A stretch of DNA of 64,000 bases from Escherichia phage HP3. Location: sequence record NC_041919.1; one strand, given 5' to 3'. Below are positions 5,534 through 56,734 of this stretch, in pieces. The position numbers and the translations under genes are program-made. The stretch's first letter is position 1, and every line of letters begins with the position of its first letter. The notes below the pieces were generated by a model. The model was not told where the DNA came from. It did not search any database and saw only the letters and a program-made list of their open reading frames with translations.

Positions 5534-5562
5534 TTTACTTTGCCACAAGGATGTGGTATAAT
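5533..5562 (+). promoter_or_regulatory. T4-type early promoter
   Basis: GTTTAC 5533-5538, TATAAT 5557-5562; CCACA..TGTGG inverted repeat in spacer; near-identical to promoter at 51770. Confidence 0.65.
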
Positions 5563-5590: not shown

Positions 5591-6592
5591 ATGACTCGTA
5601 ACGAATATATCAAATCATTCAATAGCGTTATTGATGATAAAGTTAAACCTGTGTTTAGTCAGAATAGTGTTATTTCCATTATCAATCAATGGCTCAATAA
5701 TATTGATGCAAGTATTGTTTCTTCAAGCAAATTTATTCATGAAGTTCATAAAATTTCTAGTCGCGAATATAAAGATGATATTAAGGAAACTTTTAAAGGT
5801 TCTCGTCTTCTTTCATATTTAGTTAATCAAGATATTCTTGGTAAATTTGGGAAAGAAATTAAACGAACTAAAGATGTAGTAGGATACAGTTGGTTCGGTG
5901 ATGTTAATTCTTATCATCTTAATAATAAAGAAGACCCTGAGAATATTTTTACTCGTCGTTGGATTAGTAATTTTAGACTTTTCAAGAAGCAAATTCTAAA
6001 ATCAGCTTCTAAATTATGCTATGGTGATTATCGTCAAATCCATCCTTGGGCTTCTGATATGATTATCATAAAAGAATATGAGCTTGATAAAAATAAAGCA
6101 GCTATTTTTGTGAATTATGAATTTTTTACACCAGAAGCTAATCAAAAGAACATTAATAAATTTTTCTCAATTGCTAGCGATATAACTCGTCAGTTAGAGA
6201 CCGCATTACTTTGTATGGAAACAGTAGAAAATATTCATACTTATCCTTTTAAGAATATATGCGGTTGGGAAGGATATAAAATTGTAGTTAGTCTCCGTGA
6301 AGTAAAGTGTGCGTACTCACCGACTGATAAAGAAATTTACCAACAAAAATGTGATGAAATTGTGAATACTCCTAAAGAAGAAACTACCCTTGAGGAACTA
6401 ATGGAATGTCTTGACGATTCGCCTGAACCAGTAGAAATTCGTCCAGAAGTTATTGCACTAGAAAAAGCTTATAAAGAAGTTCTAGAAATTTCTAATAAAG
6501 CGCAGAAAGAATATGAGCAGGCTAAAAAGATTTGGGAAGAATCCGTTAATCGTCTTGATCGTCTTGAACAAGCTTTACAGTTAATTAAGTAA
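5591..6592 (+). CDS. hypothetical protein, paralog family (333 aa)
   Basis: ATG 5591 after GAGGAGATTAAT; track ORF 5540 start lies inside the promoter. Confidence 0.6.
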   Translation: MTRNEYIKSFNSVIDDKVKPVFSQNSVISIINQWLNNIDASIVSSSKFIHEVHKISSREYKDDIKETFKGSRLLSYLVNQDILGKFGKEIKRTKDVVGYSWFGDVNSYHLNNKEDPENIFTRRWISNFRLFKKQILKSASKLCYGDYRQIHPWASDMIIIKEYELDKNKAAIFVNYEFFTPEANQKNINKFFSIASDITRQLETALLCMETVENIHTYPFKNICGWEGYKIVVSLREVKCAYSPTDKEIYQQKCDEIVNTPKEETTLEELMECLDDSPEPVEIRPEVIALEKAYKEVLEISNKAQKEYEQAKKIWEESVNRLDRLEQALQLIK

Positions 6593-6644
6593 TTTAAAGC
6601 CAAGGATGGCTCGGAGTATAAACCATTAACCAAGTGAGAAGAAT

Positions 6645-28218: not shown

Positions 28219-28258
28219 ACAACTATCAACTACTGATACGGATTTGGAGAATAAAATG
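28211..28258 (+). repeat. conserved leader cassette (copy 2 of 3)
   Basis: same as 1142-1186 with a 3-nt insertion; ends in ATG of the downstream ORF. Confidence 0.85.
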
Positions 28259-33908: not shown

Positions 33909-33944
33909 TTTACAAGCTGACAAGACTATGGTATAGTAGTCTTG
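33908..33944 (+). promoter_or_regulatory. T4-type early promoter with inverted repeat around -10
   Basis: GTTTAC 33908-33913 (overlaps gene 41 stop), TATAGT 33932-33937; CAAGACTA (33921-33928) / TAGTCTTG (33937-33944). Confidence 0.65.
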
Positions 33945-33966
33945 TTGGTTAAATGAGGAGATTGTT

Positions 33967-36809: not shown

Positions 36810-36828
36810 ACAAATTTCATAAATTTGT
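36810..36828. repeat. perfect palindrome ACAAATTT-CAT-AAATTTGT
   Basis: 8-bp inverted repeat with 3-nt centre, abutting the -35 of the promoter at 36827. Confidence 0.9.
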
Positions 36829-36856
36829 TTACTTTCTCAGCTTGTTATGGTATTAT
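36827..36856 (+). promoter_or_regulatory. T4-type early promoter
   Basis: GTTTAC 36827-36832, TGGTATTAT -10 at 36851-36856. Confidence 0.65.
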
Positions 36857-36881
36857 AAAATAAATTGCTGAGGATGATATA

Positions 36882-38221
<1,340 letters not shown>

Positions 38222-39046: not shown

Positions 39047-39184
39047 AGCATTTGGTTCTGATGGATATAATATTAGAGCTCATTGGAAGTTTAATGCTCC
39101 AGCCGATTATTCTCCGGTAATTATTAACGGTGATGTTGTTATATTAACTAAAATTGGGTATTTTAACGTTCCGCAAGAATTTAT

Positions 39185-39192
39185 TATAAATA
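39185..39192 (+). promoter_or_regulatory. late promoter (TATAAATA) for soc
   Basis: exact TATAAATA about 30 nt upstream of soc ATG. Confidence 0.7.
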
Positions 39193-39221
39193 GTCATGTA
39201 ATTTAAATAAAGGAGAATTAC

Positions 39222-39467
39222 ATGACTAGTACTCGCGGTTATGTTAATATTAAAACATTTGAGCAAAAATTAGATGGAAATAAGAAAATTGAAGGAAAGG
39301 AAATTTCTGTAGCTTTCCCTCTTTATTCTGACGTTCACAAAATTTCTGGCGCTCATTATCAGATATTCCCTTCAGAAAAAGCAGCATATTCTACAGTATA
39401 TGAAGAAAATCAACGTACTGAATGGATTACTGCAAACGAAGATTTGTGGAAAGTAACTGGTGAATAA
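39222..39467 (+). CDS. soc: small outer capsid protein Soc
   Basis: 81 aa; MTSTRGYVNIKTFEQKLDGNKKIEG matches remembered T4 Soc. Confidence 0.9.
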   Translation: MTSTRGYVNIKTFEQKLDGNKKIEGKEISVAFPLYSDVHKISGAHYQIFPSEKAAYSTVYEENQRTEWITANEDLWKVTGE

Positions 39468-46587: not shown

Positions 46588-46617
46588 GTTTACTTCCTCG
46601 GTTAGTTGTGGTATTAT
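46588..46617 (+). promoter_or_regulatory. T4-type early promoter
   Basis: GTTTAC 46588-46593, TGGTATTAT -10 at 46612-46617. Confidence 0.65.
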
Positions 46618-46644
46618 AACACCATAGCTACTGAGGATAATAAA

Positions 46645-47145
46645 ATGAAAATTTATCGTGTTGAATCATCGTTTAGTATTCTTGATTATGAAGATGCTAT
46701 AACAATACGTCGAAATCTTTGTGTTCAAATAACGCCGTACAGGAGTATAATAGATTCATGGAGCGAAGAGTGGCTATTACACGTAGGTTATGACAGACCT
46801 AATTTTATGCATCATAGCGATAATAATAAAAGAATTCCTTTACCACACGAAGATAAACTATTAGTTAAAAACGCTAATATAGTAATTAATACTAAGTTCA
46901 AGAAAGATTATGTTGGAGTAGAATATCATATTCCAGGATGGTTTATAGGTCTTTATCATTTTGCTTTCGCTAGTGAATATGATATGATGAGATGGTTCAC
47001 ACGAGAAGAGCGTGAAGAATTAGCTTCGAAAGGATTTTATCTTGCTGTATACGAAGTACCAGATGACCAAGTTATCATTGGCGGGCATCAAGTAATGTTC
47101 CGTAAATCCCATGCTGAACTTGTAGATTTTATTGAAATGAGATAA
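46645..47145 (+). CDS. hypothetical protein (166 aa)
   Basis: ATG 46645 after GAGGATAAT. Confidence 0.5.
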   Translation: MKIYRVESSFSILDYEDAITIRRNLCVQITPYRSIIDSWSEEWLLHVGYDRPNFMHHSDNNKRIPLPHEDKLLVKNANIVINTKFKKDYVGVEYHIPGWFIGLYHFAFASEYDMMRWFTREEREELASKGFYLAVYEVPDDQVIIGGHQVMFRKSHAELVDFIEMR

Positions 47146-47147
47146 TT

Positions 47148-47693
47148 ATGAAATTTAATTATAATCCTGAATACACACCGAATCCGGCAGCTAAACTGAT
47201 TGATTTTGACGTTGTAAGTACTTATGTATGCCCTGTTAAACCACTGGAAATTAAGGAACCTACTATGACTACCGCTATTGAAATCGGCAAAACCTACAAA
47301 CTGGTTGAACCTAAAATTAAAACTAATGCCTTGATTTCTGGTCATAAAACTCTGACTGATGTTTTTGGCGAAGGCGAATTTATTGTTGAAGAATTTGCCA
47401 AAAGTGAGTGGTTTGACAAATCTTACGTCATCCACGGTCGCCGGTTAGATAATAACAAAATAAAGAAAAACCTGGTTTATGAAGATGAGTTCATCCTGTT
47501 CCAAGAAGTTGAAGAACAAGACCCTACAGACCTGTTGTGTGCTGCTGTGTCTATCCGTCGTCCTTTTGATAATCCTATCTGTGGTTGGGTAACAGACCAG
47601 TGGATTGAAGATGGTGTTGAGCTTCTGAACGTTGTCCATGCAGGAGATTTTAGTGTAGTACCTCGTAGTGCGGTGGTAGCTATTTTGAATTAA
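47148..47693 (+). CDS. hypothetical protein (181 aa), tandem paralog A
   Basis: C-terminal TDQWIEDGVEL shared with next ORF. Confidence 0.55.
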   Translation: MKFNYNPEYTPNPAAKLIDFDVVSTYVCPVKPLEIKEPTMTTAIEIGKTYKLVEPKIKTNALISGHKTLTDVFGEGEFIVEEFAKSEWFDKSYVIHGRRLDNNKIKKNLVYEDEFILFQEVEEQDPTDLLCAAVSIRRPFDNPICGWVTDQWIEDGVELLNVVHAGDFSVVPRSAVVAILN

Positions 47694-47695
47694 TA

Positions 47696-47730
47696 GTTTA
47701 CAAACTCTTGGGACCAGAGTATAATGGTCC
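47696..47730 (+). promoter_or_regulatory. T4-type early promoter with inverted repeat around -10
   Basis: GTTTAC 47696-47701, TATAAT 47720-47725; GGACCA (47711-47716) / TGGTCC (47725-47730). Confidence 0.65.
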
Positions 47731-47769
47731 TGTGGAGTATAAAATCTTTTTAACAAGTGAGAGATAACT

Positions 47770-48261
47770 ATGATTATTAATATTGGTGAAATTGCTCGTG
47801 TATCTGATAAATCCCGTTCTAAAGCAGCAGGAAAATTGGTCGAAATTGTAAGCATTCAGCTTAAACACGGCGTTAAAGATGAAGATTCTGAAGTAAAAGT
47901 GCGTATCATTCCTAAAGATGGAAAGTCTAAACCTCAGTTTGGTTATGTTCGCGCGAAATTTCTTGAATCTGCGTTTTTGAAAGCTGTTCCCGCTAAAGGA
48001 ATTGAAACGATTGATACTTCGCATGTAGGTGTAGACTTTAAGTGGAAACTCGGTCAAGCTATTAAGTTCATTGCTCCTTATGAGTTTGAATTTATCGAAG
48101 GTGGACAACCACTTCCTCGGCGTACTCGCGCTATGTGCGCATACATTACTGATCAATGGGTAGAAGATGGCGTTAAGTTATACAACGCGGTATTTTTAGG
48201 AACATACAAAGTCATTCCTGAAAGTTGGATTAAACACTACAGCAAAGCTCGCTATGCATAA
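47770..48261 (+). CDS. hypothetical protein (163 aa), tandem paralog B
   Basis: C-terminal TDQWVEDGVKL. Confidence 0.55.
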   Translation: MIINIGEIARVSDKSRSKAAGKLVEIVSIQLKHGVKDEDSEVKVRIIPKDGKSKPQFGYVRAKFLESAFLKAVPAKGIETIDTSHVGVDFKWKLGQAIKFIAPYEFEFIEGGQPLPRRTRAMCAYITDQWVEDGVKLYNAVFLGTYKVIPESWIKHYSKARYA

Positions 48262-48291
48262 AGTTTAAAATTTTTTCATAAAACTATATAC

Positions 48292-48334
48292 ATCAGTAGT
48301 TGATTATGGTACTATATCAATATCAACTACTGAT
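48292..48334. repeat. perfect 13-bp inverted repeat enclosing a -10-like element
   Basis: ATCAGTAGTTGAT (48292-48304), 17-nt loop TATGGTACTATATCAAT, ATCAACTACTGAT (48322-48334). Confidence 0.9.
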
Positions 48335-48432
48335 ACAGAAAACAACTTGGAGAATAAAATGGATAATTCGTTAAAGGTGCGCTGATACTCTTCTGAAACG
48401 CATCGCTCCAATGTTCAATTAATGAGGAAATT

Positions 48433-48651
48433 ATGATGAAACGTAAAATTATTCAGAATTGCACTAATGATGAATTTGAAGATGTGTTATTCGATCCAGA
48501 TTTGGTAGTAGTTCAAAAGGAACACACTGCTAAGTTTACTCACTTGACTTCGGTTTATGTGTATGAAAAGGTTGGGGATAAACAACCAATTTACGGTGTA
48601 TTTCGTGAAATCACTGAAGATGGTACAACTTACTGGAAGGAAATTTATTAA
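48433..48651 (+). CDS. hypothetical protein (72 aa)
   Basis: ORF after GAGGAAATT. Confidence 0.5.
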
Positions 48652-49064
48652 TGGCTATTAAATTTGAAGTTAATAAATGGTATCAATTTAAAAATAAACA
48701 AGCTCAAGAAAATTTTATTAAAGACCATACTGATAACGGAATCTATGCACGCCGTTTAGGTATGCATCCTTTTAAAATTTTAGATGTGGATGCTCTTGGG
48801 CGTCCTATTAAAATTATGTCATTTGCTGGAAATTTAGTACTATCTTCTGGTAAAGATATTTTGGATGAAGATTTTATTTGGCTTTCATCGAATGAAGCTG
48901 AATTCTTTAATGAAGTTGAAAATCCATACCAGGCAGCTGAAGAGCAGGAAGAATCTGCACCGATAATTGATCAATCTAAATTCCCTGTAATGAAAGTTAC
49001 TATTGAAAATGATGAACAGGCATGGTCCTTGTATCAGATGTTGAAAGCTCACTTTAAGGAATAA
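48651..49064 (+). CDS. hypothetical acidic protein (137 aa)
   Basis: ORF with TAATG junction. Confidence 0.55.
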
Positions 49065-49066
49065 TT

Positions 49067-49243
49067 ATGCCGCTTTATGATTATAAATGTCAATCAAAAG
49101 ACTGCGCAAAAGAATACGAAAAAATCAAGAAAATTTCTGAAAGAGATACTGATGTATGTCCTGATTGTCATCGGATTGCTGTTCGGTTAGTTTCCGCTCC
49201 TAGACATGTGAATGGTGGTTTTTACGACTTGCTTAAAGGGTGA
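49067..49243 (+). CDS. small zinc-ribbon protein (58 aa)
   Basis: CQSKDC...CPDC Cys pairs; below track cutoff. Confidence 0.45.
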   Translation: MPLYDYKCQSKDCAKEYEKIKKISERDTDVCPDCHRIAVRLVSAPRHVNGGFYDLLKG

Positions 49244-51770: not shown

Positions 51771-51799
51771 TTTACTTTACCACAAGGATGTGGTATAAT
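51770..51799 (+). promoter_or_regulatory. T4-type early promoter
   Basis: GTTTAC 51770-51775 (overlaps gene 39 stop), TATAAT 51794-51799; 31/33 identical to promoter at 5533. Confidence 0.65.
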
Positions 51800-56049: not shown

Positions 56050-56079
56050 GTTTACATACCACAAGGACCGTGGTACTAT
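56050..56079 (+). promoter_or_regulatory. T4-type early promoter
   Basis: GTTTAC 56050-56055, TACTAT 56074-56079. Confidence 0.7.
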
Positions 56080-56562: not shown

Positions 56563-56592
56563 GTTTACAAGACTGTTCTTCCGTGGTACTAT
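56563..56592 (+). promoter_or_regulatory. T4-type early promoter within stem-loop cassette
   Basis: GTTTAC 56563-56568, TACTAT 56587-56592; TGTTCTTCC (56574-56582) / GGAGGAACA (56608-56616). Confidence 0.65.
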
Positions 56593-56620
56593 TACCCTAT
56601 CAACTACGGAGGAACAGAAA

Positions 56621-56734
56621 ATGAAAAAGATTATTAAAGCTATATGGAATGTAGTTATAATACTAATAGTTTTGAGTATATTCCCAATCGTTTTAATGAT
56701 TGATGTATTAAACGTTTACTTTGGATTTATGTGA
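56621..56734 (+). CDS. hypothetical small membrane peptide (37 aa)
   Basis: ATG 56621 after GGAGGAAC; hydrophobic. Confidence 0.35.
   Translation: MKKIIKAIWNVVIILIVLSIFPIVLMIDVLNVYFGFM

Follow-up and report, generated by a model that had tools for sequence, protein, structure and literature searches.

The spacer between motB and cef in Escherichia phage HP3 raises the question of why a perfect 13-bp inverted repeat should surround the -10 element of a promoter that leads into an open reading frame (ORF) of only eight codons. The locus was analysed within a 64,000-nt stretch of the phage genome (NC_041919.1), hereafter termed the window, whose coordinates are used throughout. A sequence-only reading of this window had described the repeat, the -10 element in its 17-nt loop, a leader, an ATG at 48359 opening the 8-codon frame MDNSLKVR and a gene starting at 48433, and all of these features were confirmed. 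The best explanation, and one that we consider probable, is that the spacer carries a cassette of the promoter-early stem-loop (PeSL) kind with its stem-loop over the -10 element, that RNA reading through from motB forms the hairpin, and that the 8-codon ORF is the stump of a deleted gene.

The spacer extends for 171 nt between motB (47770-48261) and cef (48433-48651). Its counterpart in phage T4 is 170 nt long and almost identical, and it carries this inverted repeat at NC_000866 complement 6582-6624. The left arm, ATCAGTAGTTGAT (48292-48304), and the right arm, ATCAACTACTGAT (48322-48334), both given for the + strand, are complementary at 13/13 positions and enclose the 17-nt loop TATGGTACTATATCAAT, in which lies the extended -10 sequence TGGTACTAT (48307-48315). 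Imperfect pairing extends the structure to 20-nt arms with 85% complementarity and 3 nt between them. As RNA, the hairpin has a folding energy of -19.4 kcal/mol and was present in both the minimum free energy (MFE) and the centroid structures of a 184-nt read-through RNA (z = -3.5). Chance occurrence was estimated using 200 dinucleotide-preserving shuffles of the 64-kb window. Two perfect 13-bp inverted repeats with loops of 3-30 nt were present in the window as compared to a mean of 0.055 in the shuffles, of which 3.5% held any perfect 13-bp repeat; shuffling thus makes such a repeat ~40 times rarer.

Conservation was examined at two depths. Among close relatives, a 53-nt core including the left arm was identical in 432 of 514 phage records, whilst the neighbouring stump has gathered indels. 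Some ~19 records were <95% identical in the core. Variants were read in five genomes, and none of the five had a change inside the 13-bp arms. In VEc74, two flanking mismatches become G-C pairs through the substitutions A48290G and A48335G, so that the stem grows from 13 to 16 bp and its folding energy shifts from -20.2 to -27.8 kcal/mol. In phages G4500, ESh24 and ZN18, the substitution C48336T turns the same A·C mismatch into an A-U pair, and in JE01 the variant base is in the loop. For more distant comparisons, cef loci were drawn from IMG/VR (24 loci) and from GenBank phages taken singly, with Cef identities down to 39%. Most of these relatives have an early promoter directly upstream of cef and an inverted repeat centred in the -10 hexamer, formed by arms of unrelated sequence: GGTGTAGGAG/CTCCTACACC, GGTGTAGGAAC/GTTCCTACAC, GGTAGGAGC/GCTCCTACC, GGGCTAT/ATAGCCC, GGGTTAT/ATAACCC, GGTCTAT/ATAGACC and GATAGGGTA/TACCCTATC. 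A first alignment of 11 sequences had 93.2% of its cells paired as compared to 85.5% in shuffles (0/500 reached 93.2%) and 35-51% in slid controls, with three pairs changed on both sides; its non-Watson-Crick cells, partly read by eye, comprised six G·U, one A·C and five pyrimidine-pyrimidine combinations. A second alignment (five sequences) had 97.5% of cells paired and two compensatory pairs. The hairpin looks functional, and the pattern of substitutions across these genomes shows the mark of selection for structure.

A repeat of this kind could also arise as a neutral by-product, if one templated mutation (i.e. a strand switch at a quasipalindrome) had copied the complement of the transcript start into the promoter spacer and the product had then persisted through the close kinship of Tequatrovirus genomes. 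Perfect complementarity and the unrelated spacer of the closest paralogue (the e.8 cassette of RB69 and RB3, described below) would fit a one-step origin; the arms are also invariant within the genus and so offer no covariation inside it. This explanation nevertheless appears very unlikely, as at least five other lineages have this architecture, with unrelated arms and compensatory changes, at their orthologous promoters, the rare variants within the genus all lengthen the stem, the stump decays freely beside an unchanged core, and pairing of spacers with their own leaders is in excess across the whole family of cassettes.

That family was apparent when the spacer was compared to the window using the Basic Local Alignment Search Tool (BLAST), which found + strand copies at ~1098, 2580, 28169, 34435, 56071, 56584 and 59683. 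The aligned copies have in common an A/T tract (AAAAATTTTTCACAAAAC), GTTTACA, a variable spacer of 17 nt, TGGTACTAT, the transcript start ACAACTATCAACTAC(T)GATACGG and the leader GGAGAATAAAATG. Judged by this alignment, positions 48262-48361 are one copy of a repeated T4-type early-promoter cassette of the PeSL kind. PeSL cassettes of T4-type phages were described by Arbiol et al. 2010 (PMC2839356) and Comeau et al. 2014 (PMC4122927) as an A/T region, a sigma-70-type early promoter, a stem-loop and a Shine-Dalgarno sequence with an ATG, divided into subclasses by the position of the stem-loop; these authors proposed a terminator or attenuator role, linked the cassettes to gene shuffling and mentioned A/T-rich analogues in T-even phages (PMC2839356, PMC4122927).

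The same succession of parts is present between motB and cef (all on the + strand). The A/T-rich upstream (UP-like) part, AGTTTAAAATTTTTTCATAAAACTA (48262-48286), aligns with AAAAATTTTTCACAAAAC upstream of the -35 in the copies at 1098, 28169, 56071 and 59683. It is followed by a weak -35 hexamer, TATACA (48287-48292), located 17 nt upstream of the -10 hexamer TACTAT (48310-48315) and having one mismatch to the family consensus TTTACA; either TATACA or TGTACA likewise occurs at the cef promoters of Dhakavirus and Muldoon relatives. The whole, TATACA-N17-TACTAT with a TGn, matches the T4/PST consensus TTTACW-N17-TAYWAT except for this one -35 position and is a predicted early promoter. Seven other cassettes of the window share its extended -10 exactly, and so does the T4 motA promoter in its annotated -10 signal (Z48569); that promoter has both its -35 and -10 annotated and is a paralogue within the cassette family. 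The 13-bp perfect stem with the -10 in its loop corresponds to one described PeSL subclass, in which the stem-loop lies over the -10 box, and G-T stem pairs are given in the original PeSL figure legend. At the 3' end, the leader GGAGAATAAAATG (48349-48361) supplies a Shine-Dalgarno sequence and the cassette ATG, and at 1184, 28256 and 56114 this leader is found ahead of real genes. As with PeSLs, there are many intergenic copies per genome among small accessory genes (at least seven further copies in this window) and genes are present or absent beside the cassette. A total of 21 early-promoter cassettes were found in the window; the 20 others open ORFs of 37-322 aa, and the motB-cef cassette alone leads into fewer than 37 codons. 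A MotA-dependent middle promoter was rejected by eye, the TGCTT box being absent around -30.

Three differences from the described PeSLs were apparent. The stems of RB49 and phi1 are G/C-rich, and one of them behaved like a strong terminator in a reporter, whereas the motB-cef stem is A/T-rich and has no U-tract. The PST/T4 stem-loops were placed just upstream of the promoter in the 2014 paper (PMC4122927), whereas this one straddles the -10. Finally, gene loss at motB-cef occurred through a microhomology deletion within an ORF and not through exchange between cassettes.

The closest paralogue of the leader, …ACTAC(C/T)GATACAGAAAA(A)ACTTGGAGAAT(G/A)AAATGGATAAT…, was found upstream of gene e.8 in RB69 (positions 250-360 of locus L061) and RB3 (L062). 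This e.8 cassette is far off in the genome and its spacer is unrelated, which suggests that the cassette has been moved by recombination and that the left arm was gained afterwards. Small palindromes internal to the spacer (CCACAAGGATGTGG or CCACAAGGACCGTGG) were observed at 5534-5562, 51771-51799 and 56051-56079 of the window and in the Jiaodavirus cef promoter (L053), where the palindrome within the promoter spacer stands in place of the repeat around the -10; these correspond to the PeSL subclass with a stem-loop between the -35 and -10 elements.

The alignment of cassettes assigns different roles to the two arms. The right arm corresponds to the conserved sequence at the start of the transcript, with the same 13-mer in a paralogous cassette at 28225-28237, and the left arm fills a promoter spacer that is normally free to vary. 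Transcription from the cassette promoter is expected to start at 48322 +/- 2 (at the first base of the right arm; ~6594 on the minus strand of T4 NC_000866), so that the left arm would lie upstream of the transcript and RNA from this promoter would be unable to form the hairpin. Both arms would then occur together only in RNA reading through from the motB promoter (47697) or in extruded DNA. The suggestion of a regulatory hairpin thus held in that the element is real and selected and not a coincidence, whereas the proposal that it sequesters the 5' end of the mRNA made from its own promoter does not fit the expected start site.

Pairing between promoter spacers and leaders was then examined for the 21 early promoters of the window, by pairing each spacer with the 45 nt that follow its own promoter and with those that follow the other promoters. 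Cognate pairs had a mean of -10.6 kcal/mol as compared to -7.3 kcal/mol for non-cognate pairs (permutation p < 1/20000). Strong spacer/leader hairpins were present at 2560, 33909, 36828, 46589, 47697, 48287 and 56564. At four of these promoters, the partner of the spacer is the Shine-Dalgarno region, at a distance of 30-40 nt (2560, -20.8 kcal/mol; 36828, -13.7 kcal/mol; 46589, -23.1 kcal/mol; 56564, -23.3 kcal/mol), and the paralogous pair 2560/56564 differs by transitions that keep the pairing through G·U. Of 24 strong hairpins, 20 had a better folding energy on the sense than on the antisense strand (Wilcoxon p = 8e-4), and the sense-antisense asymmetry was -2.30 kcal/mol for cognate as compared to -0.67 kcal/mol for non-cognate combinations (p = 5.5e-4). 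These data support a hairpin in sense-strand RNA as the level of action; the G·U bias towards the sense strand and the 3' arms formed by Shine-Dalgarno regions favour it over a cruciform or a protein operator. The promoter-free hairpin retained by phage VR25 and the soc hairpin, which likewise encloses a promoter (both described below), point the same way. As the 13 bp of the motB-cef stem are perfect Watson-Crick pairs, the RNA-level argument is drawn from the cassette family and the relatives. The six sister promoters with self-complementarity (-13.7 to -23.3 kcal/mol) extend over 2560-2620, 33909-33950, 36828-36885, 46589-46650, 47697-47740 and 56564-56625.

Action at the level of DNA would involve extrusion of a cruciform or hairpin in supercoiled phage DNA, which could expose or occlude the -10 or serve as a target for recombination or endonuclease VII and so drive the shuffling of PeSL cassettes. 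The symmetry centre falls inside the -10 hexamer in every lineage, the T4-type repeat is near-palindromic when its 20-nt arms and 3-nt separation are considered, the motB-cef locus is a hotspot for indels, and the PeSL authors placed a recombination crossover in the loop of a stem-loop and speculated on a DNA-binding recombination factor (PMC2839356). A cruciform, however, needs pairing on both strands, and sense pairing exceeds antisense pairing through G·U. Moreover, the stems of relatives (7-12 bp, with loops of 6-12 nt) are poor for extrusion, pairing with a Shine-Dalgarno region 30-40 nt off at several sister promoters is sensible in RNA alone, and the junction of the deletion at this locus is within the ORF, at an AAAA microhomology and outside the stem-loop. 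DNA-level action was accordingly given a low probability.

A further alternative, that a dimeric phage or host DNA-binding protein recognises the 13-bp half-sites around the -10 as a palindromic operator and shuts the promoter off, would account for the symmetry of the repeat about the -10 and for its strong conservation within the genus. However, no other place in the window has the left-arm sequence as a repeat partner, other promoters of the same genome have entirely different arms, and orthologous promoters have changed both arms in a compensatory manner. As these compensatory changes include G·U combinations, they indicate pairing rather than recognition by a protein, and an operator seems highly improbable.

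Hairpins with an internal promoter are known to control e, soc, 49 and I-TevI in T4 (reviewed in PMC3014915). The motB-cef element resembles these in having a predicted promoter in or next to the 5' arm, such that only transcripts derived from upstream would be expected to fold; the soc example is in the window at 39191-39228. Two differences were evident, as the known hairpins bury the Shine-Dalgarno sequence and/or the AUG, whereas the 3' arm at motB-cef lies over neither, and their internal promoters are late or middle, whereas that of motB-cef is early. The right arm ends at 48334 and GGAG begins at 48349, a gap of 15 nt that leaves both the Shine-Dalgarno sequence and the ATG uncovered. 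Sequestration of the ribosome-binding site by the motB-cef hairpin itself was set aside, only a weak effect being predicted.

A translational switch of the e/soc/49/I-TevI type, with the downstream gene translated only from RNA of its own promoter, could still act through pairing over a longer range. The sister cassettes at 2560, 36828, 46589 and 56564 do pair their spacers with Shine-Dalgarno regions and, in the read-through fold, positions 48270-48280 (AAUUUUUUCAU), a U-tract in the A/T-rich part upstream of the promoter, pair with the cef Shine-Dalgarno region at 48421-48431 (AUGAGGAAAUU) in both the MFE and centroid structures, with two U·G pairs. Predicted unpaired probabilities are lower in read-through than in own-promoter RNA, at 0.42 versus 0.61 for the Shine-Dalgarno/ATG of the cassette and 0.26 versus 0.46 for cef. 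These shifts in accessibility are, however, modest and disappear for the T2 gene in a longer context (0.55 versus 0.53), the long-range pairing may be of a generic kind between an A/U-tract and a Shine-Dalgarno sequence, and the 13-bp arm itself stops short of GGAG. A switch of this type is considered unlikely for motB-cef.

The second perfect 13-bp repeat of the window (39184-39228; arms TAGTCATGTAATT / AATTACATGACTA) has AAGGAG in its loop and, in its right arm, the ATG of an 81-aa ORF (MTSTRGYVNIKTFEQ...), which we take to be the soc gene. A late-promoter-like sequence, TATAAATA, is located at the 5' edge. This repeat is the textbook soc hairpin, which hides the ribosome-binding site in early read-through RNA.

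For motB-cef, the hairpin over the -10 is most readily understood as a structure of read-through RNA. RNA initiated at the cassette promoter would begin with the right arm, lack the 5' arm and stay open, whereas sense RNA reading through from motB would carry both arms and form an intercistronic hairpin of ~-19 kcal/mol. The most likely job of the hairpin would be to delimit the motB message, and two routes can be envisaged. In the first, the hairpin would attenuate read-through from motB; in the second, it would protect the motB 3' end left by a RegB cut at 48350/48351, within the GGAG located 15 nt downstream. Expression of the cef-goF unit would then come mostly from transcripts that lack the hairpin. 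The exact role may be that of an attenuator or of a 3'-end stabiliser, and our ranking of roles would place insulation first, a translational effect by longer-range pairing second and DNA-level action third.

The second route has parallels in two known systems. Intercistronic stem-loops protect upstream mRNA from 3' exonucleases, as do the REP elements in malE-malF. The motB-cef hairpin would be analogous in being stable, devoid of a U-tract and located ~30 nt past the motB stop and before the next ribosome-binding site; it differs in not being a repeated REP sequence, and the resemblance would be one of function. A RegB cleavage site is predicted at GGAGAATAAAA (48349-48359), which matches the strong consensus GG*AGRAYARAA (PMC3014915) at every position, is located like other such sites in an early intergenic leader, and has a predicted mean unpaired probability of 0.42-0.61. 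In contrast to other RegB sites, this one precedes a dead mini-ORF and not a gene, so that a cut would part the cef RNA from a motB RNA whose end lies just past the hairpin, rather than inactivate a ribosome-binding site that is in use.

Two further identities were considered for the hairpin and rejected. An intrinsic (Rho-independent) terminator was ruled out by the missing U-tract and by a terminator scan of the window, which did not report the motB-cef hairpin. A known RNA family was ruled out, as there was no Rfam match at E <= 1 on either strand of 48100-48600.

Several points weigh against the interpretation of this locus as a PeSL cassette acting through read-through RNA. The stem has only 4/13 G-C pairs, is A/U-rich and is followed by a 3' flank, ACAGAAAAC, without a U-tract, and it is consequently no canonical intrinsic terminator; the terminator activity of PeSLs was measured on a single G/C-rich RB49 stem-loop. 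Being wholly Watson-Crick, the stem exhibits no strand asymmetry of its own (-19.3 versus -20.3 kcal/mol). Promoters located behind canonical terminators tended to be without spacer hairpins, but the link of a spacer hairpin to the lack of a canonical terminator upstream was a trend only (-11.8 versus -6.9 kcal/mol, p = 0.14). Promoter activity and the start at ~48322 are deduced from homology and the geometry of the -10, and a literature search for T4 5'-end or transcript maps returned nothing usable. A simple sigma-70 scan omitted the cassette promoter, whose two hexamers score 8/12, because the -35 TATACA is one mismatch away from TTTACA. Finally, the covariation alignments are small (11 and 5 sequences) and their members are related to one another.

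The 8-codon ORF was explained by comparison to relatives. A 270-nt gene encoding 89 aa starts at the ATG of this ORF in T2, KIT03, VEc74, locus L010 and about half of the relatives sampled; it belongs to family phrog_3720 and has no Pfam match. HP3.1 and T4 retain its start, ATGGAAAA, and its last ~54 nt (…KFAKGAATLLKRIAPLFN*), joined out of frame. Alignment to the intact gene showed that a 208-bp internal deletion at the AAAA microhomology removed the middle of the 89-codon gene. The ORF MDNSLKVR* (48359-48385, + strand; stop TGA at 48383-48385), preceded by GGAG at 48349-48352, is an out-of-frame fusion of the lost gene's first 8 nt with its 3' end, and a non-coding 3' remnant of that gene (48367-48422, + strand), with the old TAA stop at 48420-48422, aligns with ...AAATTCGCTAAAGGTGCTGCTACTCTTCTGAAACG...TTCAATTAA of T2 and KIT03. 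The sequence-only reading had supposed that the original gene start had decayed; the downstream gene has indeed been lost, but its start was kept and the middle was removed.

The deletion junction is identical in all deleted genomes, the T4 reference included, and has been followed by separate indels in the stump (+2 nt in the window, -1 in L009, +3 in L006). The earlier proposal that an intact gene at the 48359 ATG in relatives would mark the window sequence as a sequencing or assembly artefact did not hold, since T2, KIT03 and VEc74 have such a gene and yet the same junction recurs in T4 and in many independently sequenced genomes with later indels; an artefact was accordingly ruled out. Across genomes the mini-ORF varies from 4 to 11 codons (8 in the window, 11 in T4, 4 in L009 and 11 in L007), and it is not conserved as a peptide because both length and sequence vary. 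A functional leader peptide was rejected on the same variation, generated by indels among close relatives. By these genome comparisons, the mini-ORF is a real, old and decaying deletion stump without a function of its own. The "empty" 170-nt motB-cef spacer of T4 and its relatives is thus a promoter-plus-hairpin cassette with a gene stump, and the mini-ORF should not be annotated.

The motB-cef element belongs to a class already described in the best-studied phage and opens no new category; it is a well-supported further case of PeSL-type cassettes. Promoter-embedded stem-loops had earlier been viewed mainly as terminators or recombination sites. The compensatory changes across genera, the stem-lengthening variants and the G·U bias towards the sense strand provide computational support for selection on RNA structure in those of T-even phages. 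If confirmed, the expression of an early gene would depend on the promoter from which its mRNA originated. A broader reading, which is plausible although we would stop short of calling it probable, is that T4-type phages may routinely use the early-promoter spacer as the 5' arm of a sense-RNA hairpin, such that folded read-through and open self-initiated RNAs differ in translation, cleavage or stability; motB-cef would be the most conserved example, covarying across several genera of Tevenvirinae. Were this true, spacer hairpins would extend the logic of e and soc beyond a few late genes to a large share of the early transcriptome, and would be more than the terminator-like appendage or recombination site of the first PeSL descriptions.

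The surroundings of the cassette are those of a T4-like genome. Over positions 47600-49100 the sequence matches Escherichia phage HP3.1 at 100% identity and hundreds of T4-like genomes at >90%, and on this sequence identity the 64-kb window is Tequatrovirus. Upstream, motB (an ORF at 47770-48261, + strand; Pfam motB, E = 3.9e-99) is the source of read-through RNA able to contain both arms and is preceded by its own early promoter, TTTACA-17-TATAAT (47697-47725, + strand). Downstream, cef (48433-48651, + strand; Pfam T4_Cef, E = 2e-35) is the first real gene now served by the cassette promoter, and goF (48651-49064, + strand) follows.

The slot behind the cassette has had various occupants: the 89-aa gene in T2, the stump in T4 and HP3.1, a 22-aa ORF (UP19) and a further MotB-like gene (F13076). 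In phage UP19 (Dhakavirus; ~310-390 of locus L047), the 22-codon ORF is hydrophobic (MFAPYIMIAVIVICLYLLIKAC*), is located behind GGAGAATAAAAATG and lies between the cef-proximal cassette and cef. In Salmonella phage F13076 (649-1068 of locus L005), the additional MotB-like gene is located between motB and the cassette with the 89-aa gene, representing another indel at the same junction.

Two further departures from the usual promoter-hairpin arrangement were observed upstream of cef. In phage VR25 (Gaprivervirus; ~340-380 of locus L054), motB and cef are still separated by a hairpin, but one that encloses no promoter: GATAGGGTAATTTTGCCCTATC makes up the ~50-nt spacer and immediately precedes the cef ribosome-binding site, and no -35 or -10 is recognisable within it. 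Loci L022 and L046, from a more distant relative, have a compact overlap of terminator and promoter. At ~60-90 nt upstream of cef lies the canonical terminator AGAGGT-TTACA-ACCTCT followed by TTTTATTTT; its loop contains the -35 of the next promoter, whose spacer takes in the T-run.

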